This document shows positions 1 to 61,330 of a DNA stretch of 64,000 nucleotides, piece by piece. Origin of the DNA: Candidatus Omnitrophota bacterium (lineage in GTDB: Bacteria > Omnitrophota > Gorgyraeia > JAHJTE01); assembly GCA_040753675.1 (NCBI GenBank), contig JBFMEB010000006.1, positions 4,561-68,560 on the forward strand. The letters run 5' to 3'. The stretch's first letter is position 1. Every line of letters starts with the position of its first letter. The notes under the pieces were generated by a model. It was not told where the DNA came from. It saw nothing but the letters and a program-made list of their open reading frames with translations, and did not search any database. Made by a program: the position numbers and the translations under genes.

Positions 1-429
1 GGTTCTGATTTTTAAGGTAAGCGGCAAGTGAGTATTCTTTCTAATCAATCTCAATAATTTAGCCAATCTTTTTGGCTCTTTGAGAAGGGCTGCGCCTTCT
101 CCTCGGCGCACTACTTTTCTGACCGGGCAGGCAGCGTTAAAATCCAAAATATCTATAGGATGTTTATGGATTTCCTCCAAGGCATTTAGGATAAATTTTT
201 CTTCTCTACCGAGAATCTGTATGCCCAGCGGCCTGTCAGTATCATCAGATAGAAAAAAATCAGCAGTGCTATTTTTGTTATGGCTTAGAGCCCGCACATT
301 TATCATCTCGATGAATGCGAGCGGGCAGCCAAATCTGCGCATAAGCCGCCTATAGGCTAAATCAGTTATTCCGGCCATGGGCGCTAATATTAGGGCTGGC
401 TCAATTGTTAAATTAGCTATTTTAAGCAT
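1..429 (-). CDS. dus: tRNA-dihydrouridine synthase (DusB-like). The 5' part is present; the 3' end runs off the window start
   Basis: Reverse-strand translation from the ATG at 429 gives MLKIANLTIEPALILAPMAGITDLAYRRLMRRFGCPLAFIEMI...DILDFNAACPVRKV. This has the Dus 'APMAGITD' signature and the Dus-family nucleotide/substrate-binding motif (DFNAACP). It is missing from the ORF track only because it is edge-truncated. Confidence 0.8.
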   Translation of the reverse strand, partial: MLKIANLTIEPALILAPMAGITDLAYRRLMRRFGCPLAFIEMINVRALSHNKNSTADFFLSDDTDRPLGIQILGREEKFILNALEEIHKHPIDILDFNAACPVRKVVRRGEGAALLKEPKRLAKLLRLIRKNTHLPLTLKIRT

Positions 430-469
430 AGGTATATTCTATTAGAAAATTGAGTTTAAGTCCACTAGG

Positions 470-497
470 TTGACTTTCTTACGATTAGCGCTAAAAT
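470..497 (+). promoter_or_regulatory. Candidate sigma70 promoter, TTGACT-16-TAAAAT, upstream of ORF 510
   Basis: Good -35/-10 match read directly. It is divergent from dus. ATG 510 lies 12 nt downstream. Confidence 0.4.
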
Positions 498-509
498 ATA
501 CAGGTAAAT

Positions 510-3206: not shown

Positions 3207-3464
3207 ATGGAAAATTTTGATTTTGAAAATCTAAATGTTTATAAAAAGTCATTGGAATTTATTCATAATATTTTGGAAATTTATAAAAAATTATCCAGAG
3301 AATTCCAGTATTCCATTTCTTTGGATTCAACGAGAGAATGTATTTCTGTTTTTAATGTTCTATATAGAGAATCCTTCATAGATGAAGGAATTTATAGCAA
3401 ATTACGCTTGGAAGCTAGAGAGATTACCAGCATGTTATGCGGTTTGATAGACTCAATTGGTTAA
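3207..3464 (+). CDS. Small, degenerate four-helix-bundle-like protein (23S rRNA IVS protein family, short)
   Basis: The N-terminus LNVYKKSLEFIHNILEIYKKL resembles 26704 (LEVYKISHKLAIEIHKM). It is flanked by inverted 'gtttacag / ctgtaaac' repeats. Weak call. Confidence 0.35.
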   Translation: MENFDFENLNVYKKSLEFIHNILEIYKKLSREFQYSISLDSTRECISVFNVLYRESFIDEGIYSKLRLEAREITSMLCGLIDSIG

Positions 3465-6948: not shown

Positions 6949-8643
6949 ATGATGCAAGAGAAAAAATCGCTGGGCTTTAGTTTGGTTGAAGCAGGATTAT
7001 TAGGCTCGGAAGAGTTAAAATTAGCGGAAAAAGAGGCGAAAAAAAATAGCATATCCCTGCGAAAGGCTATTCTAAAATTGGGAATTATTGAGGAAGATGC
7101 GCTGGTTTCATTCTTAAGCACTCATTTAGGTATTCCCAGTATAGACTTGAGCACTTATTTGATAGACCCGGCAATTTTGCAGCATGTGCCAAAAGATTTG
7201 GCTGAAAAATATGACCTTATTCCGGTTTTTAAAATTGGCGATACATTGACATGTGCAATGTCTGAGCCCTTAAATATCGTTGCCCAGGATGAAATCCGCC
7301 TAAAGACAGGTTTTAATATCGAAGCAGTTGTGGCAAGGGAATCGGATATAAAAAGCGCAATCTATTCTTATTATGGAGAGAAGACTTCTGTAGAAGACGT
7401 AGTGAAGGAATTAGAACAAGTTGAGGCAGATTTAAAATCAGGCAGAGAGATAGCAGCTAAACGGCTTAAAGATTTAGCCCAAGAGCCTCCGCTTATCCGT
7501 TTGGTGAACCTTTTGATTATGAAGGCAATTAAAGAAGAAGCCAGCGATATTCATATCGAACCAGAAGAAAATACCCTGCGGGTGCGTTATCGTATTGACG
7601 GCATATTGCATGATGTTGAAGCCCCGCCAAAACATTTGCAGCAGGCAATAATTTCTCGTATTAAGATACTTTCTAATCTGGATATTGCAGAGCGCAGGAT
7701 TCCTCAGGATGGACGGTTTCAGGTTAGCGCAGAAAATAGGCGCATTGATATCCGAGTCTCTTGCGTGCCGACAATTTTTGGCGAAAATATTGTATTGAGA
7801 TTACTTGATACCACACACCTAAAGTTGAATTTGCAGGATTTAGGCTTTGAGAGCGAGGAATTGGAAAAATTCGAACGCTTTATCCAGAGGCCCCATGGAA
7901 TTATCTTGGTAACTGGACCTACCGGCAGTGGAAAGACAACGACTTTATATGCAGCTTTAAATAAGATAAATTCCGCAGAAAAAAATATTATTACTATTGA
8001 AGACCCTGTTGAATATCGTCTGGCAGGAGTGCGCCAGATTCAAGTTAATCCTAAGGTGAATCTTACCTTTGCTAATGGCTTACGTTCGATATTGCGCCAG
8101 GATCCTGATATAATAATGGTAGGAGAAATTCGCGATAGAGACACTGCCGAGATTGCTATACATGCTGCTTTAACCGGTCATTTAGTGCTTTCGACATTGC
8201 ACACTAATGATGCCGCCGGAGCAATTACCCGGCTTATTGACATGGGTATAGAACCATTTCTGGTCGCCTCATCGGTTATCGGCATAGTTGCACAAAGATT
8301 AGTGAGAACAATCTGTTCTGGTTGCAAAGAAGCATATCAAGTCTCAGATAAAATATTAGAAAGTATTGAGTTGGAGAGAACTGTTAGAGGTCCTGTATAT
8401 TTTCATCACGGTAGAGGCTGTAATAAATGCCTTAATACTGGCTTTCACGGTCGAACAGCAATTTTTGAACTCTTATTAATGGAAGAAACAGTCAGAGAAT
8501 TAACGCTAAAAAAGGCATCGACAAGTGCTATAAATCAAGCCGCAATTAAATTAGGTATGCGTAATTTAAGAGAATCTGGCTTAAAAAAGGTCAGTAGCGC
8601 TATAACCACTATTGAAGAATTAATGCGGGTTACTGAGGAGTAA
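6949..8643 (+). CDS. pilB: Type IV pilus / T2SS assembly ATPase (PilB/GspE/MshE family) with an MshEN-type N-terminus
   Basis: Tandem T2SSE_N domains. Walker A GPTGSGKTTT, Asp and His boxes. Tetracysteine CSGCKEAY...CNKCLNTGF. The N-terminus SLGFSLVEAGLLGSEELKLA fits the MshEN c-di-GMP-binding motif. Confidence 0.9.
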   Translation: MMQEKKSLGFSLVEAGLLGSEELKLAEKEAKKNSISLRKAILKLGIIEEDALVSFLSTHLGIPSIDLSTYLIDPAILQHVPKDLAEKYDLIPVFKIGDTLTCAMSEPLNIVAQDEIRLKTGFNIEAVVARESDIKSAIYSYYGEKTSVEDVVKELEQVEADLKSGREIAAKRLKDLAQEPPLIRLVNLLIMKAIKEEASDIHIEPEENTLRVRYRIDGILHDVEAPPKHLQQAIISRIKILSNLDIAERRIPQDGRFQVSAENRRIDIRVSCVPTIFGENIVLRLLDTTHLKLNLQDLGFESEELEKFERFIQRPHGIILVTGPTGSGKTTTLYAALNKINSAEKNIITIEDPVEYRLAGVRQIQVNPKVNLTFANGLRSILRQDPDIIMVGEIRDRDTAEIAIHAALTGHLVLSTLHTNDAAGAITRLIDMGIEPFLVASSVIGIVAQRLVRTICSGCKEAYQVSDKILESIELERTVRGPVYFHHGRGCNKCLNTGFHGRTAIFELLLMEETVRELTLKKASTSAINQAAIKLGMRNLRESGLKKVSSAITTIEELMRVTEE

Positions 8644-8672
8644 ACACGGTGCCTTGAATAAATAACGCTTTA

Positions 8673-8775
8673 ATGTAAAAATCAAAATGCAAAAATCAAA
8701 ATTACAATGCAAAATGCAAAATTTTTTAATTTTGATATGTCATTTTAATATTTAATTTTTAATATTTGATATAAA
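8673..8775. repeat. AT-rich imperfect palindrome (caaaat family) at the pilB1-pilC1 junction
   Basis: aaaatcaaaatgcaaaaatcaaaattacaatgcaaaatgcaaaat ... ttttgatatgtcattttaatatttaatttttaatatttgatat. Positions 8679-8722 are an exact inverted copy of 1094-1138. Confidence 0.8.
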
Positions 8776-8805: not shown

Positions 8806-10032
8806 ATGAGTCCGATTTTTGCTTACAAAGCAAGAGATAAACAGGGTGCCTTAGTAAAAGGAATCTTAGAAGCAGGTTCACAAGATGAGCTTATAGATAA
8901 ATTGCATAAGATGGGTTATCTGGTCATAAGCCTGGGGCAAAAAAGCAGTCCGGCTTTTAAATTAGATTTCCTATTGGATAAATTCACAACTATAAGTATC
9001 ACAGAAAAACTTTTATTTTATATTCAATTTGCAAATTTAATTCAATCGAGTTTGCCGATCTTAACAGCTCTTAAGACATTATCTAGCGAAATTAAAAACA
9101 GACGATTTAAACTTGTGTTAGAGGATGTTGTGAAAAAAATCGAATCTGGGTTAAGCCTCTCAGAGGCATTAGCTAATCATTCTGAGGTATTCTCTGGACT
9201 TTTAGTGCATATGGTAAAGGCAGGTGAGGCAAGTGGTGCATTAGCGCAGGTGTTAACCAGGTTTTCAAAATTTGCTGAGGAAGACTATGATTTGCGTCAA
9301 AGAGTAAAAGCAGCCTTATTTTATCCCGTGCTTTTAAGCCTGGCCAGCGCCGCGTTGATAATATTTATCACTAGTTTTGTTGTCCCAAGTTTCGTAGCCA
9401 TTTTTCAAAAGGCAAAGGTTAAATTGCCTATCTCTACTCGGTTTCTTTATTGGTTGGGAATGGCTTTAAGAAGCAATTGGTTTTTATTTTTAATTTCTAT
9501 TTTTCTTTTTATCTTTGTGTTAAAATGGATTATTAATACTAAAAAGGGGCGTTTAATTTTTGATAGTTTTAAATTAAATTTGCCTTTGTTAGGAGATGTT
9601 TTTCGCAAATTAAGTATATCGCGTTTTAGCCGCACCCTGGCGACATTAGATGCAAGCGGGGTGCCGATATTAAAGTCTTTAGAAATTTCTAAGGAGGTGA
9701 TGGGTAATAAGTTAATAGAAAAAACCATAGAAGCAGGAAGCCAACTTGTTGAGCAAGGAAGCACGCTTTATGAAGCACTAAGAACTACTAATCAGTTTCC
9801 AGAAGAGGCATTGCAGATGATTTCAGCAGGAGAGCAGGGTGGTAATTTGGCACCGATGCTTTCTAAACTCTCTGATTATTATGAAAAACTCATTGATTAT
9901 CGCCTGAAACGATTAGTTAGTATAATTGAGCCTGCCTTTCTTGTAATAGTAGGAGGCGTGGTTGCCTTTATTATGGCTTCGATGTTGATGCCGATATTTG
10001 ATATGGTGAAGGTGATAAGGGCGATGAAATAA
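8806..10032 (+). CDS. pilC: Type IV pilus / T2SS inner-membrane platform protein (PilC/GspF)
   Basis: Two T2SSF repeats, three TMs, ~400 aa. Typical GspF architecture. Confidence 0.9.
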   Translation: MSPIFAYKARDKQGALVKGILEAGSQDELIDKLHKMGYLVISLGQKSSPAFKLDFLLDKFTTISITEKLLFYIQFANLIQSSLPILTALKTLSSEIKNRRFKLVLEDVVKKIESGLSLSEALANHSEVFSGLLVHMVKAGEASGALAQVLTRFSKFAEEDYDLRQRVKAALFYPVLLSLASAALIIFITSFVVPSFVAIFQKAKVKLPISTRFLYWLGMALRSNWFLFLISIFLFIFVLKWIINTKKGRLIFDSFKLNLPLLGDVFRKLSISRFSRTLATLDASGVPILKSLEISKEVMGNKLIEKTIEAGSQLVEQGSTLYEALRTTNQFPEEALQMISAGEQGGNLAPMLSKLSDYYEKLIDYRLKRLVSIIEPAFLVIVGGVVAFIMASMLMPIFDMVKVIRAMK

Positions 10033-10040
10033 GTGAGGAC

Positions 10041-10076
10041 ATAAGTTACGGTGGCGTTAGCAACGTAACTTATTTG
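10041..10076 (+). terminator. Hairpin after pilC1 (ataagttacg...cgtaacttat). Possible terminator or attenuator
   Basis: Perfect 10-bp inverted repeat with a 13-nt loop, followed by tttg. Confidence 0.4.
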
Positions 10077-10080
10077 TCCG

Positions 10081-10200
10081 AACTTACCCAGCACTTATTT
10101 TACTAAAAAGCTGGATAATAAAATTAAGATTTTATTCGAAGAAAATTTATTTTATTTCAAATCAAAGCCTGGCAGTAAAATAAGTGCTGGGTTAAATTCG
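10081..10200. repeat. ~120-bp MITE-like inverted-repeat element, copy A. It has 18-bp perfect arms cccagcacttattttact / agtaaaataagtgctggg
   Basis: Near-identical, with 3-4 differences, to 51154-51275. The internal aataaaat-taag-attttatt sub-hairpin is conserved. Confidence 0.85.
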
Positions 10201-10265
10201 TAGACGGCCTTACGGCCTACAATTTATGTCGCCCATTGGGCTCCATAAATTGTCTACTCATTTAA
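10200..10265 (+). ncRNA. Candidate structured 5' leader, a three-stem element upstream of the pilin gene (copy A)
   Basis: P1 gtagac/gtctac. P2 ggcc-ttac-ggcc. P3 aatttatg-(tcg...ctcc loop)-cataaatt. Then tcatttaa-GGAGG-ATG. The same architecture with compensatory changes occurs at 49486-49548. Confidence 0.5.
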
Positions 10266-10277
10266 GGAGGTGTTTTT

Positions 10278-10769
10278 ATGCGACGGGTTTTTGGTTTTAC
10301 GTTAATTGAATTACTAATTGTTATTGCAGTTATTGCTATTTTAGTTGGAATTACAGTTCCAAGGTTTTTAGGTATGAGAGATGAGGCAAATTCTGCTAAG
10401 GCATCAGGAGAGACCGCAGCCTTAAAAGCAGCAATTGAGGCATACAGAATACACAGGGGTGTCTTTGCTTATGACGGTGATCCTGATACTTGGCAAAGCC
10501 AGTTGACTGCCATGAGACCGCAGCTTATCGAATCAGTGCTTCCAGATCCATTTACTGCTGCTACCTCGCCAGATAATGAGTATCAACTCGATGTTTCACC
10601 CAATGGAAGGTATTATGTAATTTGGTCAATTGGGCCAGATGCAGAAGCAGATATTAGTGGAATTGACAATAATGGCACTATTCTTACCACCCCCGCTGGC
10701 GGCTGTAATATAACAACCACAACTTGTAATAGAACAGAAGATATTTACGCAACTAATGGAACGCCTTAA
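10278..10769 (+). CDS. Prepilin-type N-terminal cleavage/methylation domain protein (type IV pilin or pseudopilin)
   Basis: MRRVFG|FTLIELLIVIAVIAIL class III signal peptide. Confidence 0.85.
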   Translation: MRRVFGFTLIELLIVIAVIAILVGITVPRFLGMRDEANSAKASGETAALKAAIEAYRIHRGVFAYDGDPDTWQSQLTAMRPQLIESVLPDPFTAATSPDNEYQLDVSPNGRYYVIWSIGPDAEADISGIDNNGTILTTPAGGCNITTTTCNRTEDIYATNGTP

Positions 10770-11826: not shown

Positions 11827-11957
11827 GTAAAATCAAAAATCAAATATAAAAATGCAAAATGACAATGCAAAATTTAAAATTTATAAACTTAAGTTTAAAA
11901 TAATTTTACATTTTAATATGTAATTTTGATATTTAATTTTTGATATTTAATTTTTAT
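11827..11957. repeat. AT-rich imperfect palindrome (caaaat family) centred on taaacttaagttta
   Basis: aaatcaaaaatcaaatataaaaatgcaaaatgacaatgcaaaat ... attttaatatgtaattttgatatttaatttttgatatttaattttt. Confidence 0.8.
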
Positions 11958-13460: not shown

Positions 13461-13567
13461 AAGTCAAAAGTTGTCATACAATTGTCATACTATTGTCATA
13501 TATTGTCTATTTACAATGTATGACCATATTTGACTATTTATGACTACGTATGACTTATTACTGTCTG
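13461..13567. repeat. 'tgtcata/tatgaca' palindromic repeat element, copy A
   Basis: aagtcaaaagttgtcatacaattgtcatactattgtcata...atgtatgaccatatttgactatttatgactacgtatgacttattactgtctg. Near-identical to 39470-39572. Confidence 0.85.
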
Positions 13568-16185: not shown

Positions 16186-16190
16186 TTAAA

Positions 16191-16283
16191 CGCAGATGAT
16201 CGCTGACAAATGAACAGATGATCACTGATTTTTAATTTTTATCTGTGTTCATCTGTCGCTTTTCAATCTGTGTTCATCTGTGT
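16191..16283. repeat. 'cagatga/catctgt' palindromic repeat element
   Basis: cgcagatgatcgctgacaaatgaacagatgatcactga ... atctgtgttcatctgtcgcttttcaatctgtgttcatctgtgtaca. The motif acgcagatgatcactgatg recurs at 39439-39460. Confidence 0.75.
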
Positions 16284-18001: not shown

Positions 18002-18040
18002 TATAAAGATAAATTTAAATATCAAAAATCAAATATCAAA

Positions 18041-18421
18041 ATGGCAATACAAAATTCAAAATCTGATGACTTTAAAGAGAAATTTAAACAAAGACTATAT
18101 GATTTTGTATTAAAGCTTATCAATTTTTTAGATAGTTTAGCTAAAGATAATGTTTCAAGAAGAATTAGTGACCAATTGTTAAGGAGCGGAACAAGTATTC
18201 TTGGGAATTATATTGAAGGTAAATCAGCAAGCAGTAAAAAAGAGTTTACTAATTTTTTTAATACTTCCTTGAAGTCGGCTAATGAAAGCAAATTATGGCT
18301 TACATTATTGCGTGATGCTAAACGAGCTAATACTGAAGAAGTAACTTGGTTTCTGAAAGAACTCGATGAGATTTCTAATATTTTTGCATCAAGCATTTTG
18401 ACACTTAAAGGTAAAAAGTAA
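18041..18421 (+). CDS. Four-helix-bundle protein (TIGR02436 / '23S rRNA intervening sequence protein' family)
   Basis: DQLLRSGTSILGNYIEGKSASSKKEFTNFFNTSLKSANESKLWLTLL matches the family core. The gene sits between pilB2 and pilC2 inside a caaaat/attttg palindrome (18002-18040 and 18422-18482). Confidence 0.75.
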   Translation: MAIQNSKSDDFKEKFKQRLYDFVLKLINFLDSLAKDNVSRRISDQLLRSGTSILGNYIEGKSASSKKEFTNFFNTSLKSANESKLWLTLLRDAKRANTEEVTWFLKELDEISNIFASSILTLKGKK

Positions 18422-18482
18422 TTTTTAATTTTAATATGTAATTTTGATTTTTGCAGTTTGATTTTTGAATTAGTTTTATATT

Positions 18483-29289: not shown

Positions 29290-30924
29290 ATGGAGAAAAC
29301 CAGCAAAATATTAATCGGGATAGATATAGGAGAATATTCTATTAAAGCTGTAAAGATAGAAAAGACAGCTTCGGGATTGCGGATTCTAGATTTTATTACC
29401 AAAGATGAAATCTCTAAAAATGCACAAGGCGAAATCGACCCCGCTGTTATAAAGGATATTTTAAATAAGTTCTCAATTGAGGGGGCGCAGATTTGTTCTG
29501 TTATTTCTGGAGGAGACATAGTAGTTAAGCACGCTATTGTGCCATTTATGCCCAAGGAGGAATTAAAAGACGCAGTGCGTTGGTCTTTGAAGGAAGTAGT
29601 AAATTTCAACTTAGAGGAAAGCAAAGTCGACTTTCAGATACAAGATGCTATTACCGGCACAGATGGCATAAAGCGCAACGAGGTCTTAGCTGTAGCAGTT
29701 AACAATGCGGTTATTGATAAAAATGTAAAATTACTCCAAGCAGCCGGCATAGAGCCATACTTAATTACTACGAGCCATTTTGCCTTAGCAAATTTGGTTG
29801 CGCATAACGAACGAATAATGCAAGGTAAAACCAATGTCTTGATTGACATCGGGTTTAAGAAAACTACCATCTTAATTTTTAGAGGCACAAAATTAGAATT
29901 TATCCGACAGATTTCTTCCGCAGGAGATAGTTTTACCAAGGCTTTAAGCGGCGTGGTGGTTACATTTCCCAAACGAATAGAATTGGATTTTAAAAAAGCG
30001 CAAGAGTTAATAAGACAATGCGGCATTCCTTCTAAATTTGAAGCGAATGCTAACGTCCAAGATGTTCCGTTGTCTCAAATATCTGTATTAATGCGGCCGG
30101 TTTTGGAGCGTTTTCTCACTGATGTGCGGGGCTCTTTTAAATATTTTAGGGAAGAATTCCAAGTTGAGTCAATAGATCAGATTTTTTTATCAGGTTCCGG
30201 TGCGATGTTAAAGAATTTAGTTGAATTTGTAAAGGATGGTTTGGGAGGTATACCTACTCAGTTAATTCCCATGCCTGAGCGGTTAGGCTTCCAGGTAGAT
30301 AAAGATAAGTTGTTACCCCTTCTGCCTGCATTGTCAGTGAGTATAGGAGCATGTTTAGGAGAGGATAATGTTATAAATTTAGTTCCTAAGTCGGTAAAGA
30401 TGCAGAAATCTATAAGTGTCCAGCAAAGAATATTAAGTTTTGCTGGTATTATACTTCTTATAATTGTACCTTTTACTTTCATATCATTAATACTAAAGTT
30501 GAACCGTTATAAAAGGATTCTCATATCCTATAATGACTATTATAGTAATCTGGTTAAATTACGCACCTTGAGGGATAATATTGTCGAACGCCAGAAGTTT
30601 TTCAATGAAATTATCGGTCGGGAACAAAATCTTTTCTTATATTTGAAAGAATTGAGCCGCATCGTGCCCAGTGCAATTGAGTTTAGGCATCTTGAATATG
30701 ATAAAACCCAAGAGATATTTTTAATACAAGGCTTAGCTTATAGCGCTGAAATTTCTTCTGAGAAATCTTTATCTAATTTTCTGCTTGACTTAGAAAATTC
30801 TCCTTATTTTAGTGATGTAAATCTGATTTCTAGCAAAAAAACTAGTACCGATCAGATAGAAATCGTAGATTTTGTATTAAGTGTTAAATTAACCAAAGTT
30901 AACCCCGTTAGAGATTACAAGTAA
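29290..30924 (+). CDS. pilM: Second PilM-PilN fusion protein
   Basis: ILIGIDIGEYSIKAVKIE actin-like N-terminus. C-terminal TM (ILSFAGIILLIIVPFTFISLIL) plus a PilN-like tail. Paralogous to 13578-15209. Confidence 0.75.
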   Translation: MEKTSKILIGIDIGEYSIKAVKIEKTASGLRILDFITKDEISKNAQGEIDPAVIKDILNKFSIEGAQICSVISGGDIVVKHAIVPFMPKEELKDAVRWSLKEVVNFNLEESKVDFQIQDAITGTDGIKRNEVLAVAVNNAVIDKNVKLLQAAGIEPYLITTSHFALANLVAHNERIMQGKTNVLIDIGFKKTTILIFRGTKLEFIRQISSAGDSFTKALSGVVVTFPKRIELDFKKAQELIRQCGIPSKFEANANVQDVPLSQISVLMRPVLERFLTDVRGSFKYFREEFQVESIDQIFLSGSGAMLKNLVEFVKDGLGGIPTQLIPMPERLGFQVDKDKLLPLLPALSVSIGACLGEDNVINLVPKSVKMQKSISVQQRILSFAGIILLIIVPFTFISLILKLNRYKRILISYNDYYSNLVKLRTLRDNIVERQKFFNEIIGREQNLFLYLKELSRIVPSAIEFRHLEYDKTQEIFLIQGLAYSAEISSEKSLSNFLLDLENSPYFSDVNLISSKKTSTDQIEIVDFVLSVKLTKVNPVRDYK

Positions 30925-31184
30925 TGTTCTACACCTATGTTCTTAGAAGCAAAAAGGATAAAAAGCAATATACCGGCACTACTTCTAACTTACGGAAACG
31001 CTTCAAGGAGCATAATGATAACAAGGTAACCTCTACCAAAGGCAGAGGCCCTTTTGAACTAATATATTTTGAATTCTGCTTAAACAAACACGATGCCTTT
31101 GCTAGGGAAAGATTTCTAAAAAGTGGCATGGGTAAACGTTACTTAAAAAACAGATTGAAGCGTTTCCTATCTCTAACGGGGTAA
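30924..31184 (+). CDS. GIY-YIG nuclease-superfamily small protein (UPF0213/YhbQ-like)
   Basis: FYTYVLRS...KQYTGTTSNLRKRFKEHN is the GIY-YIG motif. Its start overlaps the pilM/N stop (TAATG). Confidence 0.8.
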   Translation: MFYTYVLRSKKDKKQYTGTTSNLRKRFKEHNDNKVTSTKGRGPFELIYFEFCLNKHDAFARERFLKSGMGKRYLKNRLKRFLSLTG

Positions 31185-33137: not shown

Positions 33138-35420
33138 ATGGTCAAAAATAATATTTATTCAGAAACAGTTAAGCTTCTTGGGCTTACCGTCAAGAAGGTC
33201 TCCCTTTATTCGCGAAACCATCCCATCGTAACAGCATCAATGAATCAGCTATTCCAACATTTACAACAGATACTTTCTGAAATTTCTCAGGTTACAATTT
33301 CCACCAAAGGAGAAGAGATATTTTTTAATGACACCTCTTTGCTGCGCAAAGAATTAGGAACACAAGAATTAATTGAAAAATTAAAACAATTCCGCATAGA
33401 TAGTATTTCTTTTAGTCCTGGCTTAGAATTGAAAGAATTGGAACATCTGATTCTTGTTTTAAGTAGCGGCAAGAAAATAGACGAAAACCAACAGCAACTC
33501 AAAGATAATTTTTTCAGCAAAGGTTTTGCTCATATACGTGCCAATCTTATTCGCTACGAAAAAGTAACCGAAGGACAAAGAGTGGTAGCGAAAGACGCTA
33601 TCTTAGAGGCAGAAAGTTTTATAAAAAAGGAAGCCCAAGAGCCAGATAAACCGGGAGAAATAATTCTTAGCGATTTTCTTAGTGGAAAAGTATTAGATCT
33701 GCCTTTAGAGAAATATCAACAGGACATTTTATCAAAATTTATAAATAATCCTGCGAGTTTTGCCCAGCCAATTTTACAAGCAGCAGTTTCCCGTGGAAAC
33801 TTAGGTGAGATTTTAGATAAATTTAAGGAATTCATTTTAGATGCGTTAACAAATGAACTTTGCGCTAAAAAAAGAAAACCAGAAAGATTAGTTTCTTCTT
33901 TTGAAAAAAGTATCGCTTCTGGCTTAACTGAGCCACAGATAGCTGAAAAACTCAAAATAAAAAAAGACGAATTAACCGAAATTTTCTCAAAATTTAACGA
34001 TGAACTAAAACTTCATATGTTGATTAAGTACTTCCAGGATAGTAGGCCTAATAATGATAAATTTATAGAGCGCTCGAGTAAATTGCTAACTGACAACGAA
34101 GAATTGAATAGATTAAAAGATAAATTGAAACAAGCGTTATTGGATGGCGGCTTGACAGATGTTGATAGCGATGCCTTGCTTGGACAGATTGATAATACCT
34201 TGGTGAAAGAGGAAAAAATTACCATCTCAAAGATAGAATATGAGCATTTGAAAAATAAGGCAGAAATTTTTGATAAGACATTGCTGGAAAGGGTAAAACA
34301 GGTAACCCTGGAGCTGGAAAAGAAAACTAAGCGCCTAGGGGATGAGAAAGAGCGGGTGGATACTGTAATCCGCAATCTCGCCGAGGGCCTAATTGTGGTT
34401 GATAAAGATGGCAAAGTGGTGATGATTAATCCCGCCGCTGAGCAATTATTAGGAATTTCCAAAGAGAATAAGATAGGCAAACATATACTAGAAGATATCA
34501 GTAGCCATCAACTTGTGGCTTTAACAAGGGGAAATTTAGCTGACGAAGGTGGGCAAGTCAGCAAAGAAATAGAGCTTAAAAGTAAAGACGAGAAGACCCA
34601 GAAGATATTGCGGGCAAGCACGGCAGTGGTAGAGAATGAAGACGGTAATACGGTAGGTATGGTTATGGTTTTAAGTGACATTACTCGACAGAAACAAGTA
34701 GAAAAAATGAAGTCAGACTTTTTCTCACATATGAGCCACGAATTACGTACCCCCATTATTGCGGCACAAAAGTCTATCTCGCTTTTGCTAACTCAGACAG
34801 CAGGAAATATTAATGATGACCAGAATAAATTTTTAGGTATTGCCAATTCTAACCTCGTTCGGTTATCGCGATTAATTGACAATATACTGGATATGTCAAA
34901 AATTGAAGCTGGCAAGCTAAAGATTAATTCCATTAAATTCGATATTGCTGAGCTTATTAGAGATATCACCAATTCTCTTTCTAGTTGGGCTACTGATAAG
35001 CATATCCAGCTGGTTGCTGATGTGCCTGGTAAAGCAATCGAGATTGAGGCAGATAAAGAGCGGATTAGCCAGGTTCTGACGAATTTTATAGGTAATGCAC
35101 TTAAATTTACACCTCAGGAAGGCAAAATCACAGTTTCAGGTAAGGAACTAGTTAAAGATGATATAGAATCAATCCAGGTTAGCGTAACAGATAGTGGCAT
35201 CGGCATTGAAAAAAATGACCTGGAGAGAATATTTAATAAGTTTGAACAAGTAAGCCTATCATCTCCCATAGGAGTAAGTGGAACCGGTTTAGGATTATAT
35301 ATATGTAAAGAAATTATCCAATTACATAATGGCAAGGTTTGGGCTGAAAGTGAAGTCGGGAAAGGCAGTGCTTTTAGCTTTATTATTCCAAAGAAATTCG
35401 TAAATGAAGCCACAACTTAG
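33138..35420 (+). CDS. Large PAS-domain sensor histidine kinase
   Basis: ~400-aa N-terminal helical region. PAS (NLAEGLIVVDKDGKVVMINPAAEQLLGI). HisKA (MSHELRTPI). HATPase_c (GTGLGLYICKEII). Confidence 0.85.
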   Translation: MVKNNIYSETVKLLGLTVKKVSLYSRNHPIVTASMNQLFQHLQQILSEISQVTISTKGEEIFFNDTSLLRKELGTQELIEKLKQFRIDSISFSPGLELKELEHLILVLSSGKKIDENQQQLKDNFFSKGFAHIRANLIRYEKVTEGQRVVAKDAILEAESFIKKEAQEPDKPGEIILSDFLSGKVLDLPLEKYQQDILSKFINNPASFAQPILQAAVSRGNLGEILDKFKEFILDALTNELCAKKRKPERLVSSFEKSIASGLTEPQIAEKLKIKKDELTEIFSKFNDELKLHMLIKYFQDSRPNNDKFIERSSKLLTDNEELNRLKDKLKQALLDGGLTDVDSDALLGQIDNTLVKEEKITISKIEYEHLKNKAEIFDKTLLERVKQVTLELEKKTKRLGDEKERVDTVIRNLAEGLIVVDKDGKVVMINPAAEQLLGISKENKIGKHILEDISSHQLVALTRGNLADEGGQVSKEIELKSKDEKTQKILRASTAVVENEDGNTVGMVMVLSDITRQKQVEKMKSDFFSHMSHELRTPIIAAQKSISLLLTQTAGNINDDQNKFLGIANSNLVRLSRLIDNILDMSKIEAGKLKINSIKFDIAELIRDITNSLSSWATDKHIQLVADVPGKAIEIEADKERISQVLTNFIGNALKFTPQEGKITVSGKELVKDDIESIQVSVTDSGIGIEKNDLERIFNKFEQVSLSSPIGVSGTGLGLYICKEIIQLHNGKVWAESEVGKGSAFSFIIPKKFVNEATT

Positions 35421-35437
35421 CGAGCAAGCTAAAGTTC

Positions 35438-35457
35438 CCTGCCTGCCGGCAGGCAGG
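35438..35457. repeat. GC-rich 20-bp perfect palindrome cctgcctgccggcaggcagg, copy 1 of 2
   Basis: Also at 45877-45896 (19/20). Both copies lie immediately 3' of a gene stop in an AT-rich genome. Possible terminator hairpin or protein site. Confidence 0.8.
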
Positions 35458-35491
35458 TGTAAGTTATCTGCTCATTGAAGGAGGTCAATCA

Positions 35492-39435: not shown

Positions 39436-39469
39436 GTAACGCAGATGATCACTGATGTCAGCTGAACCG

Positions 39470-39572
39470 GGTCAAAAGTTGTCATACAATTGTCATACCA
39501 TTGTCATATGTTGTTTTTATAATATATGACAATACTTGACTATTTATGACTATGTATGACTTATTGCTGTCT
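39470..39572. repeat. 'tgtcata/tatgaca' palindromic repeat element, copy B, preceded by the acgcagatgatcactgatg motif
   Basis: gggtcaaaagttgtcatacaattgtcataccattgtcatatg...atatatgacaatacttgactatttatgactatgtatgacttattgctgtct. About 90% identical to 13461-13567. Confidence 0.85.
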
Positions 39573-45876: not shown

Positions 45877-45896
45877 TCTGCCTGCCGGCAGGCAGG
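45877..45896. repeat. GC-rich palindrome tctgcctgccggcaggcagg, copy 2
   Basis: 19/20 identical to 35438-35457. Lies 3' of purA. Confidence 0.8.
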
Positions 45897-45900
45897 CAAT

Positions 45901-46010
45901 ATCAAAATTACAATGACCAAAACTTAATTTTTAAAAGTTTGTAATTTTACTCATTGGAATTTGAGATTTATTTGGAATTTGGGATTTGTTTATTGGAATT
46001 TAACAGGGGC
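45901..46010. repeat. 'ttggaatttg' degenerate repeat half-element sharing the 22-mer atcaaaattacaatgaccaaaa with 61209-61230
   Basis: atcaaaattacaatgaccaaaa...tcattggaatttgagatttatttggaatttgggatttgtttattggaattt. Confidence 0.75.
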
Positions 46011-49376: not shown

Positions 49377-49403
49377 TGGGGGATATAAAATCCCCCATTT
49401 TGT
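49377..49403 (+). terminator. Rho-independent terminator (gggggat-ataaa-atccccc + ttttg)
   Basis: Read directly. Confidence 0.55.
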
Positions 49404-49415
49404 TAAGTGAGACCA

Positions 49416-49477
49416 CCCCGCCCTTTTGGTTAGGGCGGAATTGAAAAATAAAAATATATCTCGCCAAAAGGGCGGGG
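49416..49477. repeat. Inverted-repeat hairpin element (ccccgcccttttgg...ccaaaagggcgggg). Architectural analogue of the 10081-10200 element
   Basis: 14-bp perfect arms, 34-nt loop. Followed by the same ttaaattcg junction and the three-stem leader. Confidence 0.7.
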
Positions 49478-49485
49478 TTAAATTC

Positions 49486-49548
49486 GCAGACGACCTTACG
49501 GTCTACAGCTTACGTCGTTAACACTCCGTAAGTTGTCTGCTCATTTAA
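49486..49548 (+). ncRNA. Candidate structured 5' leader, copy B, upstream of uppS
   Basis: P1 gcagacgac/gttgtctgc. P2 gacc-ttac-ggtc. P3 agcttacg-(tcg...ctcc)-cgtaagtt. Then tcatttaaa-ATG. Every stem differs from copy A by compensatory changes. Confidence 0.5.
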
Positions 49549-49549
49549 A

Positions 49550-50275
49550 ATGAGTAGCAAATTAAATTTAGACCCAAAGACAATTCCTCAACATGTTGCC
49601 ATAATTATGGACGGCAATGGCCGCTGGGCTAAGAAGCAAGGTCTTCCTAGATCAGAAGGGCATAAAAAAGGCGTAGAGAGAGTTAGGGAAATTGTCGAAG
49701 AAGCAGCCAGGCTAAAAATAAAGGTACTTACCCTTTATGCCTTCTCAACTGAAAACTGGAAGAGGCCTAAGAAAGAAATTAATTTATTGATGAGGCTGTT
49801 AAAGGTTTTTTTAAACAAAGAAATAAAAAATTTTAATAAGAATAATATTCGTTTTGAATGCATTGGCAGGATTAGTCAATTGCCTGCTTCGGTAATAGAA
49901 TCATTAGAGCGGGTGAGACATATTACTAAAAATAATAACGGTTTGATTCTGAATTTGGCTCTTAATTACGGAAGCCGGCCTGAGATTATCGATGCGCTAA
50001 ACAATATAATCAAGGATTATTCCAGCGGCCGCTTAAATGAAAAAAATATCGATGAAAATATTTTTTCACAATATCTATACACTAAAAATCTTCCTGATCC
50101 GGATCTATTGATCCGCACCAGTGGCGAACAGAGAGTTAGCAATTTTTTGCTTTGGCAGATTTCTTATGCCGAATTATTTTTTTCTAAAAAACTTTGGCCA
50201 GATTTTAGTGCTGATGACTTTTTTGAAGCAATTCTTGAATATCAGAATAGAGCCAGAAGATTTGGGGGTATTTAG
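49550..50275 (+). CDS. uppS: Undecaprenyl diphosphate synthase
   Basis: HVAIIMDGNGRWAKK and ...FSTENW..., ...RTSGEQRVSNFLLWQ motifs. Confidence 0.9.
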   Translation: MSSKLNLDPKTIPQHVAIIMDGNGRWAKKQGLPRSEGHKKGVERVREIVEEAARLKIKVLTLYAFSTENWKRPKKEINLLMRLLKVFLNKEIKNFNKNNIRFECIGRISQLPASVIESLERVRHITKNNNGLILNLALNYGSRPEIIDALNNIIKDYSSGRLNEKNIDENIFSQYLYTKNLPDPDLLIRTSGEQRVSNFLLWQISYAELFFSKKLWPDFSADDFFEAILEYQNRARRFGGI

Positions 50276-50281
50276 TCGGCT

Positions 50282-51085
50282 ATGGAATTAAGGAAAAGAA
50301 TTTTAAGTTCGATTTTACTTATTAGCATAACTATTGCTGCTATCAAGATATCGTGGCTGTTTGGTATTGTTGCTACGGTTTTGATTGCGTTGGCCTTAAA
50401 CGAATTTTTTGCAATGGTTCAAAGCAACGACATCAAGGTGTTTCGTTATTTTGGAATTTTAATTGGGATAATTATACCCATATCCATATTTTTTAAGTTT
50501 GAATTAACCAGAAGCTGGGAGTTGTTCTTTATCATTTTATTATTTATTTGCCTTTTTCTCTTACAACTAAGCCGTAAGGACATAGCTGCTTCACTGGTGG
50601 CTATTTCTGTTACTATCTTTGGGATTCTTTATATTTCCTGGCTTTTTAGTTTTATTATAAAGTTACGCTTAATCTCGCCCTATGGCGAAAGCTTAGTGGG
50701 TATGCTCATCCTTACGGTTAAATCTGGAGATATTGGAGCTTATTTAGTGGGCTCGCGTTTTGGAAGACACCCGTTAATTGCGCGTATTAGCCCTAAAAAA
50801 ACAGTCGAAGGAACAATAGCTGGGTTCGTCTGCAATATGTTATTCTGTTTAGTTAGTAAAAGTTTTTTGCCGATATTTAGTTATGGACACCTGATTTTCC
50901 TTGGTTTATTTATGGGTGTGATGTCTTTATTTGGGGACTTGTCTGAATCTTTAATCAAACGCGATTGTAAGGTTAAAGACGCAGGTAGCCTATTTCCCGG
51001 CTTAGGCGGTGTCTTGGATGTTCTAGATAGCCTTCTTTTTACAACTCCGGCAATTTATTTTTATGTGAGCGTAATATTAAAGTGA
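50282..51085 (+). CDS. cdsA: Phosphatidate cytidylyltransferase
   Basis: SGDIGAYLVGSRFGRHPL...SPKKTVEGTIAG signature. Multi-TM. Confidence 0.85.
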   Translation: MELRKRILSSILLISITIAAIKISWLFGIVATVLIALALNEFFAMVQSNDIKVFRYFGILIGIIIPISIFFKFELTRSWELFFIILLFICLFLLQLSRKDIAASLVAISVTIFGILYISWLFSFIIKLRLISPYGESLVGMLILTVKSGDIGAYLVGSRFGRHPLIARISPKKTVEGTIAGFVCNMLFCLVSKSFLPIFSYGHLIFLGLFMGVMSLFGDLSESLIKRDCKVKDAGSLFPGLGGVLDVLDSLLFTTPAIYFYVSVILK

Positions 51086-51128
51086 GCAGACAATTTACGA
51101 AAAGCAGGATCTTTGAGTAAATTGTAGT

Positions 51129-51145
51129 CCCGACGATACGTCGGG
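51129..51145 (+). terminator. Hairpin cccgacg-ata-cgtcggg after cdsA. Weak terminator candidate
   Basis: 7-bp stem. No strong T-tract. Confidence 0.3.
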
Positions 51146-51153
51146 CGTCTGCG

Positions 51154-51275
51154 AACTTAACCCAGCACTTATTTTACTAAGAAAGCTGGATAATAAAATT
51201 AAGATTTTATTCGAAGAAAATTTATTTTATTTCACATTTAAGCCTGGCAGTAAAATAAGTGCTGGGTCAAATTCG
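51154..51275. repeat. ~120-bp MITE-like inverted-repeat element, copy B, near-identical to 10081-10200
   Basis: Same 18-bp arms and the same internal sequence, with 3-4 differences (caaatcaaag vs cacatttaag). Confidence 0.85.
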
Positions 51276-51320
51276 ACCAAACAATCCGTCACAAAACTTG
51301 GCGGATTGTGGTCTCATTTG

Positions 51321-52475
51321 ATGAAGAAAATAGCGATTTTAGGTTCAACCGGAAGTATTGGCAAAAGTGTGCTCTCAGTAATTGAACATTTTCCTGATGA
51401 TTTTTCTGTGGTAGGCTTAACCGCAGCAAGTAATATCAATCTTCTCGCAGCACAAATTAGAAAATTTAAGCCTAGGGTGGCTGCTTGTCTGCATAGGGAT
51501 TTAGGCAAAAAGCTTAAAAGTCAAGTTTCCAGTAAGACAAAGATTTTTTTTGGAGAAGAAAGCCTCAATTTAGTAGCCACCTTAAAAGAAGCTGACCTTA
51601 TCCTGATAGCCATAAGCGGCTTTAGCGCTTTGTATCCTCTACTGGCAGCTATCCAAGCAGGCAAACATATTGCACTGGCTAATAAAGAGGCATTGGTAAG
51701 CGCAGGTTCGTTAATTAGTAAGGAAATTATCAAGCACAAAACCACTTTGATTCCCATTGACAGCGAGCAATGTGCGATTTTTCAGTGCTTAGCAAAAGAG
51801 CCAGCTAAAAAGTTCGTTAAAACTATATACCTTACGGCCAGCGGCGGCCCGCTTTATTTCAAGAAAGATAGAAATTTTAATAAGATAAGCAAGGAAGAAG
51901 TGCTAAGGCATCCCCGTTGGTCCATGGGGAAAAAGATAACCGTTGATTCAGCTACTTTAATGAACAAAGGCCTGGAAGTTATTGAGGCAAAATGGTTATT
52001 CGCAATAAACCCAGATCAAATAAAAGTTTTAATACATCCTCAGGCGATAGTGCATTCAATGGTAGAATTTATTGACGGTTCAATTTTGGCTCAGCTATCT
52101 ATCACCGACATGAAGTTACCAATACAATTTGCTTTAAGCTACCCAAATAGAATTAGTTCGCCTTTTGCCTCTTTGGATTTTAGAAAGTTTGGAACTTTAA
52201 ATTTCTTTGAGCCGGATAATAAACGTTTTCCCTGTCTTTCTTTAGCATATCGAGCGCTTAAGTCTAAGCCGAGCGCGACCACAGTGTTAAACGCAGCCAA
52301 TGAAGAGGCAGTAACTGCATTTTTGACCAATAGGCTGAAATTTTCCGATATTGCAAAGGTCGTAGAAGAGACTTTAGGCAGACACAAACCAATTGATTAT
52401 TTGAGTTTAAAAAATATCGTTGAGATAGATTTTTGGGCGCGCGCAAAATCTAAAGAATTTATAGAAAGGATCTAA
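51321..52475 (+). CDS. dxr: 1-deoxy-D-xylulose 5-phosphate reductoisomerase. ATG 51321; the ORF-track TTG 51306 is less likely
   Basis: MKKIAILGSTGSIGKSVL NADPH-binding N-terminus. LANKE and NKGLE motifs. Confidence 0.9.
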   Translation: MKKIAILGSTGSIGKSVLSVIEHFPDDFSVVGLTAASNINLLAAQIRKFKPRVAACLHRDLGKKLKSQVSSKTKIFFGEESLNLVATLKEADLILIAISGFSALYPLLAAIQAGKHIALANKEALVSAGSLISKEIIKHKTTLIPIDSEQCAIFQCLAKEPAKKFVKTIYLTASGGPLYFKKDRNFNKISKEEVLRHPRWSMGKKITVDSATLMNKGLEVIEAKWLFAINPDQIKVLIHPQAIVHSMVEFIDGSILAQLSITDMKLPIQFALSYPNRISSPFASLDFRKFGTLNFFEPDNKRFPCLSLAYRALKSKPSATTVLNAANEEAVTAFLTNRLKFSDIAKVVEETLGRHKPIDYLSLKNIVEIDFWARAKSKEFIERI

Positions 52476-61149: not shown

Positions 61150-61330
61150 ATAGAAAGAATTCTTAAATTCCAATATACAATTACCAAATTCCAAACAATT
61201 TTACAATATCAAAATTACAATGACCAAAATAGAAAATCCTTAAGCTTTTTGTCTAGAATATTGGAATTTGGAATTTGTTTGTGATTTGTAATTTGGAATT
61301 TGTGATTTTGAGCTTTTCTTGCTACTCGTT
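61150..61330. repeat. 'caaattcc / ggaatttg' imperfect palindromic repeat element. Full element with both arms
   Basis: aaattccaatatacaattaccaaattccaaa...atcaaaattacaatgaccaaaa...ttggaatttggaatttgtttgtgatttgtaatttggaatttgtgattttgag. Confidence 0.8.

Follow-up and report, generated by a model that had tools for sequence, protein, structure and literature searches.

What is the palindromic element that stands immediately before a pilin gene of an uncultivated bacterium, and is that gene its concern at all? The locus belongs to a 64,000-nucleotide (nt) stretch of a Candidatus Omnitrophota genome (GenBank assembly GCA_040753675.1, contig JBFMEB010000006.1, positions 4,561 to 68,560 of the forward strand), hereafter the window, which has 37% G+C and carries all of its 57 long open reading frames (ORFs) on the + strand. 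From the sequence of the window, an original prediction had described a three-stem element with compensatory base changes in two copies, one upstream of the pilin gene that starts at 10278 and one upstream of uppS, had proposed a cis-regulatory leader, a riboswitch-like element or a small RNA or, failing that, a cruciform-forming protein-binding site, and had suggested a covariance-model search for further copies. We find that the focal element, delimited here as 10192-10265 on the + strand, belongs, as one arm, to a family of modular palindromic repeats, non-coding and specific to Candidatus Omnitrophota. This family is probably a new, phylum-wide relative in kind of repetitive extragenic palindromes (REP elements) and bacterial interspersed mosaic elements (BIMEs), or of MITEs (miniature transposable elements with inverted repeats), maintained and spread at the level of DNA hairpins and tolerated at gene boundaries.

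A nested palindrome with compensatory changes

The two copies, at 10192-10265 and 49478-49548, do have a nested-hairpin fold in common, with compensatory changes between them. Folded alone, each adopts the nested structure (z about -5.0, with none of 200 shuffled sequences equally stable), and covariance models score both full copies at 82-90 bits. The design is not, however, the three-stem core first described. An outer helix P0 (TTAAAT/ATTTAA), overlooked until now, is set off from P1 by a conserved symmetric TC/TC internal loop, and the order of parts in a module is P0, this invariant 2x2 TC/TC loop, P1, a 2-nt junction and P3, with another TC/TC loop and a small stem at its apex. These parts suffice for the short form, a bulged two-stem hairpin of about 62 nt that has no P2, with a P0 of TAAGT/ACTTA or covarying variants, a variable P1 and the 2-nt junction (alignment A2, 32 copies). 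The long form, of about 75 nt, is the short form plus P2, a highly variable nested hairpin at the junction that spans 7 to about 35 nt, has a closing G-C pair and precedes TAC; this form conserves the junction UAC as well as the P3 core. Overall, modules range from 55 to 90 nt. Two details of the first description need correction as well: the P3 stems of the focal copies, called completely different, are alike at all but three of their eight pairs, two of these showing compensatory changes and one a G·T, and the extended pairing gacgac/gttgtc read in the uppS copy is not conserved, the family instead pairing G17 with C43 to close P2.

Two alignments document the pairing. In A1, made of 106 pattern-matched long-form stretches, 90% of cells are paired over the whole structure and 98% in P3, where seven of the eight pairs are changed on both sides, P0 and P1 being invariant here because the search pattern fixed them; none of 500 shuffles matches the observed pairing, and register-slid controls are only 31-44% paired. 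In A2, which holds 32 partner modules found beside long copies in other genomes, 97% of cells are paired and both sides have changed in 12 of 19 pairs, counts that are biased toward structure because the set was gathered with a structure-aware model. An nhmmer profile of the long form missed most short modules and was therefore replaced by a second covariance model, R2, for short forms, beside R1 for the long form.

A repeat family specific to Candidatus Omnitrophota

Species-representative genomes scanned with the pattern AAATTCGNAGAC-N30-60-GTCTNCTCATTT returned the 106 stretches of A1; as the pattern fixes P0, P1 and the CTCATTT end, long forms lying on the stop side of intergenic regions are under-sampled. 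All but four (102) are true long-form copies, in 56 genomes labelled Omnitrophota or Omnitrophica and, in a few cases, 'uncultured Planctomycetales/Planctomycetia', and the remaining four are chance matches in other phyla, without the inner motifs. Copy number is high in some genomes, JBDRCZ alone contributing 12 aligned copies. In 753 kb of sampled Omnitrophota DNA there are 143 modules, whereas the model has no match in a 495-kb control of uppS loci from other lineages (UppS 50-59% identical, located by a protein-guided metagenome scan). A count that uses no model agrees: the frame X5-TC-Y4...rcY4-TC-rcX5 occurs 155 times in the former and twice in the latter, versus 2-11 occurrences for the same frame with other loop dinucleotides. 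The search for further copies thus succeeded, with five modules and a relic in the window and many more in other Omnitrophota genomes. The remark that no described motif could be recognised also stands, since Rfam yields no match over the window at the gathering threshold, and at E <= 10 only spurious matches to long-hairpin microRNAs. In the literature that we searched on Omnitrophota repeats, palindromes, intergenic regions and RNA motifs, no description of the element was found.

Two inverted modules around a long, perfect, genome-specific hairpin, H, make a composite that fills the entire intergenic region. Adjacent modules with their 5' ends facing number 26 pairs, with spacings of 16-308 nt, whereas no pair in the opposite, tail-to-tail arrangement is closer than 467 nt, and the H between facing modules is a perfect hairpin of 15 to about 130 nt. 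Loops also receive nested insertions, namely P2 at the junction and a CTGCC palindrome within P3 loops (L068, L019, L071 and window position 35439). In L067, and similarly in L100, the H position between facing modules is taken by an ORF, which in L067 encodes an 88-aa GIY-YIG protein (about 1500-1800).

Small intergenic ORFs for GIY-YIG nucleases of 86-88 aa recur, one of them at 30924-31184 of the window. The window has two copies of a perfect 18-nt palindrome, CTGCCTGCCGGCAGGCAG (35439-35456 and 45878-45895, against none expected), which is found elsewhere too (L068, L019, L071, L188, L190 and L191), either inside module P3 loops or alone in intergenic DNA; probably it represents one more small repeat of palindromic type, with hairpin loops as landing sites.

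Three composites in the window

The covariance-model census of the window comprises five modules, with match bounds 10025-10091 (-), 10188-10269 (+), 49474-49552 (+), 51074-51164 (-) and 51263-51325 (+), and one relic at 35390-35481. Composite A, which contains the focal element, opens with a short-form stop-side module at 10025-10091 on the - strand (R2 70.9 bits, E = 3e-16; R1 36 bits). Read on the gene strand this module begins with TAAGTGAGGACA, and the TAA within it at 10030-10032 is the stop codon of a PilC-like T2SSF gene (ORF 8806-10032; Pfam T2SSF). The central long hairpin H1 follows at 10087-10191 (CCCAGCACTTATTTTACT...AGTAAAATAAGTGCTGGG; fold of 10030-10290, z = -8.9), and recurs at 51160-51267 with 96% identity (family D6; 51182-51275 compared). 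Then comes the focal element itself, a long-form start-side module (10192-10265, +; R1 82.5 bits and folding) with P1 GTAGAC/GTCTAC, P2 GGCC-TTAC-GGCC, the junction TAC and a P3 of AATTTATG/CATAAATT that encloses a TC/TC loop and a small stem. Immediately 3' of it lie GGAGG (10266-10270) and the pilin ATG at 10278 (Pfam N_methyl motif).

Upstream of composite B, a canonical terminator-like hairpin on the + strand (49377-49397; TGGGGGAT...ATCCCCCA, then TTTTG) is separate from the repeat. After it, TTAAGTGAGAC (49403-49413, +) resembles the outer 11 nt of a decayed stop-side module and, from its sequence, looks like the remnant of one; the same 11-mer also follows the terminator in L189, which has neither the central hairpin nor the module. 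The central hairpin H2 (CCCCGCCCTTTTGG...CCAAAAGGGCGGGG, 49416-49477, by folding), of a type that also flanks modules in L079 and L102, is followed by a long-form start-side module (49478-49548, +; R1 89.9 bits, E = 2e-25). The uppS ATG, at 49550 (Pfam Prenyltransf), comes directly after CTCATTTAAA without a Shine-Dalgarno (SD) motif, so that the ribosome-binding site and start codon claimed to follow both copies are found after the pilin copy, and only the start codon after this one. A 121-aa ORF precedes uppS. Within 49540-49560, the first uppS codons, AAAATGAGTAGCA, are nearly the reverse complement of the module 3' end GTCTGCTCATTT, and in the minimum-free-energy fold the start codon can pair with the module end in a 9-bp hairpin.

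Composite C begins with a long-form stop-side module at 51074-51164 on the - strand (P2 = GCCCGACGTATCGTCGGGAC; R1 56.6 bits, E = 8e-15), and the TGA stop of cdsA (51083-51085; ORF 50282-51085, Pfam CTP_transf_1) lies inside its terminal AAGTGAG. The second H1 copy (51160-51267) is its central hairpin, and a short-form start-side module at 51263-51325 (+; R2 46.4 bits, E = 1e-9; R1 24 bits), whose outer helix TCAAAT/ATTTGA covaries, completes it, with the dxr ATG at 51309 (Pfam DXP_reductoisom). The truncated relative reported before dxr is therefore genuine. That reported before a response regulator gene exists too, but only as a weak, decayed relic (35390-35481, +; R1 17 bits, E = 0.036) between this gene and that of a histidine kinase (Pfam Response_reg and HATPase_c), in which just the 3' half of a module remains, GTAAGTTATCTGCTCATTGA followed by AGGAGG; the unrelated palindrome at 35439-35456 lies within it. 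Through the two minus-strand modules, 10025-10091 and 51074-51164, which the first description lacked, each of their intergenic regions becomes one large dyad.

Such an arrangement raises the idea of a promoter and terminator cassette, in which H would serve as an intrinsic terminator in both directions, with the next promoter inside the start-side module. H is indeed a long GC-based hairpin followed by TTAAATT or TAAGTT, and one short module is flagged as terminator-like (51281-51309, the sole flag among the modules). Yet the tails have no proper U tract, a scan finds no sigma-70-like site on the gene strand in any of the three composites, the variable lengths of P2 and of the loops preclude a fixed -35/-10 spacing, and composite B already has a separate canonical terminator (49377-49397) before it. 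We consider this the least probable of all the explanations discussed here, and an extremely unlikely one.

Other known signals were compared with the modules and set aside. Intrinsic terminators combine a GC-rich hairpin with a U tract, which the modules do not, and a sigma-54 site was rejected on inspection of the consensus. The GTTAAAT of the window copies brings integron attC sites to mind, yet the majority of copies have GGGATAAAT, GGATTAAAT or the like, and their neighbours are housekeeping genes. The window contains no tRNA or tmRNA.

Modules adjoin and supply gene ends

The genes downstream of the modules are unrelated: pilin, uppS, dxr, rpoA, infA, rplS, leuA, ispD and tRNAs. A same-strand ORF of at least 50 codons starts within 45 nt downstream of 77 of the 106 long copies, versus 14 of 106 in a reverse-direction control, and the distances to the start cluster at 0-3 nt, without SD, and at 10-18 nt, with AAGGAGG and then ATG. 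An SD-like motif precedes no more than about 22 of the 57 window genes (about 39%), so that a start without SD is nothing special after a module. Several copies precede tRNAs, and about nine stand 0-5 nt from a convergent tRNA, on the side of its 3' end. Reversed modules occur as well, adjoining stop codons and tRNA 3' ends; in 19 of the 23 stop-side modules that face an upstream ORF, the stop codon of this ORF lies within the terminal helix of the module, which supplies it as the TAA or TGA of TAAGTGAG. The window has both versions, in the PilC-like gene and in cdsA. On the other side, the outer end of the start-side module, CTCATTTAA, adjoins the SD or ATG of the next gene. The ends are thus polar, CTCATTTA on the start side versus CTCACTTA on the stop side, and the latter sequence leaves the stop side without ATG on the gene strand. 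Lying inside arrays of co-directional genes, the modules must be co-transcribed.

The modules could instead be intercistronic RNA 'punctuation', that is, structures selected at the RNA level, a reading that is compatible with a repeat origin. Termination or cleavage around H would leave the upstream mRNA or tRNA with a 3' cap made of H and the stop-side module (in its tandem G·A form), and the downstream mRNA with the start-side module as a cap at its 5' end, immediately before the SD or ATG; the outcome would be protection from exonucleases or a defined processing site of the RNase III type, comparable to the intercistronic hairpins of phage T7. The exact abutment to stop codons, to tRNA 3' ends (0-5 nt) and to SD or ATG speaks for it, as do the polarity of the ends (TAAGTGAG, without ATG, on the stop side versus CTCATTTAA on the start side) and the fact that all 57 window genes are co-directional and the modules hence transcribed. 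Pairing and site turnover, considered below, bear on it in both directions.

At three places tRNA sequences meet reversed modules. In L045 (tRNA-Met; 1-500, minus strand) and L044 (tRNA-Gly-TCC; about 2030-2150), the 5' half of a tRNA gene stops in the anticodon loop and passes straight into a reversed module at the outer end of the latter, whereas in L082 (about 7300-7412) only a short copy of the anticodon-loop region joins one. The junction, GCTCATACTTAAATGAGC, is itself a palindrome, and in L045 a tandem duplication upstream of the complete tRNA-Met gene involves a unit of about 182 nt, made up of the tRNA 5' half, the module and the spacer.

Pairing and strand preference

The stems are 97-98% Watson-Crick, and among some 1400 stem cells there are 16 G·T and 12 A·C appositions, so that G·U pairs are not in excess. 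Helices selected as RNA usually tolerate G·U far more than A·C. The TC/TC mismatch loops on the strand read so far are tandem GA/GA on the complementary strand. Likewise, hairpin loops that read TTC (23 in P2 and 11 in P3), TTAC, TGGC or TTGC become GAA, GTAA, GCCA and GCAA, including mini-hairpins of the GCGAAGC type, and GAA-type triloops, 34 in total, outnumber GNRA tetraloops. Folding predicts the complementary strand to be the more stable in 132 of 143 modules, the mean difference between strands being 4.2 kcal/mol under RNA parameters and 1.15 kcal/mol under DNA parameters. It is DNA hairpins in particular that gain stability from tandem sheared G·A pairs and C(GAA)G triloops, and GAA-type triloops are more typical of stable DNA hairpins than of RNA. 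The dyad symmetry of a composite means that a GA-form module comes first, followed by H and then by a TC-form module, on each DNA strand and for a transcript that enters from either side. For punctuation this is double-edged: on the strand transcribed first, the module beside the gene end is the more stable GA form, but the stems show no G·U enrichment and GAA triloops prevail over GNRA tetraloops.

Covariation in a palindromic repeat is in itself not proof of RNA function, as hairpin-templated correction at the DNA level gives the same pattern. The cruciform or DNA-level reading that the original prediction kept as a fallback is closer to the evidence than its leader. In one version of it, the modules would serve the host as sites for a nucleoid, topoisomerase, replication or recombination protein that recognises the cruciform or hairpin, in the manner of BIMEs, which bind gyrase and IHF. 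The dyad symmetry of the entire composite, the Watson-Crick-only stems, the DNA-type stable loops such as GCGAAGC, and the TC/TC (GA/GA) mismatches, which are retained rather than 'corrected' in 155 exact frames, are all in keeping with such a role. A structural role in the chromosome does not, however, predict the gene-related polarity of the ends or the loss of modules from orthologous sites, and we know of no partner protein for the modules. We therefore hold a host function at the DNA level to be very unlikely.

Turnover at orthologous sites

Two separate sets of four syntenic relatives, L187-L190 for the region from uppS to dxr and L191-L194 for that from PilC to pilin, allowed us to follow the composites at orthologous sites. 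Upstream of uppS (UppS 68-71% identical), the terminator GGGGGAT...ATCCCCCATTTTGTTA, corresponding to 49377-49397 of the window, is kept in all four relatives. H2 and the module are present in the window and in none of L187-L190, L189 showing only apparent end remnants. Between cdsA and dxr, the window, L187 and L190 have a composite, each relative with a different H type and module form, the spacer being 7 nt (TGAGGGCGGGATG) in L188 and 55 nt of unrelated sequence in L189. Between PilC and pilin, where the window has a short module, H1 and a long module, the models match L191, L192 and, weakly, L194, that is, at least four of five genomes are occupied, the window included. Even so, L191 (90% PilC identity) has just one short-form module with a different P1, L194 has the P0/TC frame around a different inner hairpin, and the 67 nt of L193 give no model match, only a module-like start, TAAATTCG. 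Orthologous sites thus undergo gain, loss, decay and replacement, and do not show the stable retention expected of a dedicated regulator.

Copies are also homogenised within genomes, each resembling the other copies of its own genome more than its orthologues. In the columns that the search pattern leaves free, identity is 0.70 for pairs from the same genome and 0.52 for pairs from different genomes, and falls to 0.37-0.48 among three rpoA orthologous copies. The H types are genome-specific and differ at orthologous sites. On the other hand, 20 of 78 downstream ORFs fall in nine orthologous groups common to different genomes (among them rpoA, infA, rplS, leuA, ispD and a YqeY-like gene).

These results count largely against the gene-specific leader that had been proposed, whether a cis-regulatory or riboswitch-like element or a small RNA that would sense a ligand or protein and control pilin and uppS. 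What suggested it, a conserved fold that changes in a compensatory way and lies just 5' of start codons, together with a junction UAC and a P3 core that the long form keeps, is real. But it belongs to a multi-copy repeat that stands before functionally unrelated genes, occurs in both orientations, is one arm of an inverted module-hairpin-module composite and, in its short form, dispenses with P2 and the junction. Its presence varies at the focal loci themselves, the uppS site being without a module in three of four relatives, with a possible remnant at most in the fourth, and the dxr site in two of four. The pairs do not tolerate G·U (G·T 16 vs A·C 12), the antisense strand folds better, and Rfam has no match. 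A dedicated leader is thus highly improbable.

For punctuation the comparison is mixed. Positions before rpoA, infA, rplS, leuA and ispD are common to different species, which implies long persistence, and occupation of the pilin site in at least four of the five genomes compared points the same way. But modules are dispensable in relatives: in L188 the dxr ATG comes 7 nt after the cdsA stop, and in L187, L188 and L190 uppS is preceded by the terminator alone. Selection of the modules as RNA punctuation, the main rival of the explanation that we favour, seems to us a possible account, though an unlikely one.

Origin and maintenance

We therefore favour, as the probable explanation, a new Omnitrophota-wide modular palindromic repeat family of the REP/BIME or MITE kind. 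The mobilisation that we infer would act on single-stranded DNA, where hairpins would form and where both spread and the upkeep of the palindrome would take place, by way of a hairpin-recognising enzyme, as in REP/RAYT and IS200-type systems, or of template-switch or gene-conversion correction. Modules would be tolerated because they fold upon themselves and because their ends carry harmless or useful signals, namely stop codons on one side and an A/U-rich end, ATG-free or SD-compatible, on the other. A secondary role as stable hairpin caps at mRNA 3' and 5' ends, such as REP elements have, is possible, even probable.

Several observations sit uneasily with this explanation, beyond the sampling effects given above with the alignments. 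No RAYT match was found in the 753 kb by tblastn with E. coli RAYT and IS200 TnpA queries, which is a weak negative. The sole Y1 transposase found in this DNA (L046, 6946-7380, 144 aa) belongs to an ordinary IS200 flanked by CCCCGCCCCTTGGGGCGGGG hairpins (CCCCGCCCC), which are unrelated to the modules. No direct repeat that would mark a target-site duplication is seen at the junctions when filled sites (window, L187 and L190) are compared with empty ones (L188 and L189), and the two modules of a composite, although inverted members of one family, are not alike in form or sequence, as classical terminal inverted repeats would be. Start-side (CTCATTT) and stop-side (CTCACTT) ends differ systematically, which implies selection at the mRNA or translation level. 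Finally, the core is conserved throughout the phylum, and different species have modules at matching positions before rpoA, infA and rplS, a persistence that exceeds that of most selfish repeats and hints at a function.

Regarding the ORFs between facing modules, no transposase was found among them, the GIY-YIG ORF of L067 being the sole such ORF found. TAA or TTAA was considered as a target-site duplication and rejected, as the terminal bases pair inside the module and mismatch between the ends of a composite; within each module the outer bases do pair (columns 4 and 114: UA 94, CG 8; TC...GA 8/8). L046, the locus with the IS200, belongs to JBDRCZ, the genome with the most numerous and most uniform module copies.

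The hints of function can be taken further, by supposing that Omnitrophota have domesticated a palindromic repeat as general intercistronic punctuation, with stop-side and start-side modules that define and protect mRNA and tRNA ends in long one-strand gene arrays, much as tRNAs punctuate mitochondrial transcripts and RNase III sites those of phage T7. The invariant tandem G·A loops (U·C on the other strand) may in that case be the sites that a dedicated nuclease or binding protein recognises or cleaves. Domestication on this scale appears quite improbable to us.

Whichever the origin, the modules amount to a phylum-wide sequence family outside Rfam, and of which we found no description in the literature searched. 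Those who annotate genomes of Omnitrophota, all of them uncultivated, will meet modules in a sizeable share of intergenic regions, where they are easily mistaken for riboswitches or small RNAs, a cautionary case, since covariation, however clean, does not prove an RNA function when the sequence is a palindromic repeat. As the modules mark gene boundaries precisely, they are an aid to the calling of starts and stops, and the genome-specific central hairpins could be used as strain or lineage markers.

Other repeats of the window

Apart from the modules, the window carries a second, unrelated family of AT-rich intergenic dyads, with words of about 13-nt periodicity (AAAATCAAAATGCAAAAT... and its reverse complement), at 994-1143, 8670-8772, 11828-11953, 18010-18094, 18402-18471, 45898-46001 and 61182-61308. 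Two intergenic arrays at 13463-13566 and 39471-39572, 85-90% identical, are built from words of the GTCATAC/TATGAC type (TTGTCATACAATTGTCATAC...; families D9 and D14) and lie upstream of the genes at 13578 and 39682, respectively. The words GCAGATGATCGCTGA and GAACAGATGATCACTGAT, with their complements, are repeated in the intergenic segments 16186-16279 and 39436-39460. A short ORF at 3207-3464, flanked by inverted words of the ACAGTTTACAG/CTGTAAACT type, has a sub-threshold match to the 23S rRNA intervening-sequence protein (32.0 bits against a cut-off of 33.8), and in L191 and L192 full-length homologues of it are encoded downstream of the pilin genes, at a distance of a few genes.

Comparison with known repeat systems

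The closest described class is that of the REP, REPIN and BIME elements of E. coli and Pseudomonas. REP elements are multi-copy palindromes, mostly arranged as head-to-head dimers with typically 20-100 bp between the units and able to form larger folds; they lie between co-directional or convergent ORFs, near the end of the upstream ORF or overlapping it, and in many cases provide a stop codon, their stems commonly contain G·T pairs, and GTAG- and CGTC-tagged REPs have been reported in the PVC superphylum too (Di Nocera et al. 2013, PMC3733652). The Omnitrophota modules are similarly multi-copy, intergenic, imperfect palindromes in inverted dimers, with termini that often give the upstream stop, subfamilies with complementary stem changes and mosaic combination with other motifs, and there is a partial likeness in the optional P2 hairpin, which on the complementary strand reads GTAG-hairpin-CGTC. 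They differ in being two to three times longer (55-90 nt versus 20-40 nt), in their two invariant 2x2 loops and occasional three-way junction, and in their termini, T(Y)AAAT or TAAGT, which have no GTAG/CGTC tag, these tetramers occurring only around P2. In addition, the Omnitrophota composite adjoins the downstream start as well, whereas REPs stand at variable distance, G·T pairs are uncommon in its stems, its core is shared across the phylum, and no RAYT was found by the weak search made here.

MITEs, such as the Correia or nemis elements of Neisseria, and the pneumococcal BOX and Rickettsia RPE elements are small non-coding inverted repeats of about 100-250 bp that form long hairpins; BOX is modular, and Correia transcripts are RNase III substrates. 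The Omnitrophota composites resemble them in lying beside genes, being co-transcribed and being present or absent at orthologous sites, but, unlike MITEs, have no detected target-site duplication or autonomous parent, and their arms, though inverted modules of one family, are not copies of each other, each being maintained as a hairpin of its own. The intercistronic RNase III hairpins of T7, bulged structures of about 25 bp with internal loops that leave a protective hairpin on the upstream RNA, have no sequence relation to the modules and offer an analogy of possible function only. With the subterminal hairpins of IS200/IS605 elements and with PATEs, recognised by HUH Y1 enzymes, the modules would share the character of single-stranded DNA hairpins, with conserved mismatches and a similar strand asymmetry of the fold, although the ends of those elements are in direct orientation on one strand.

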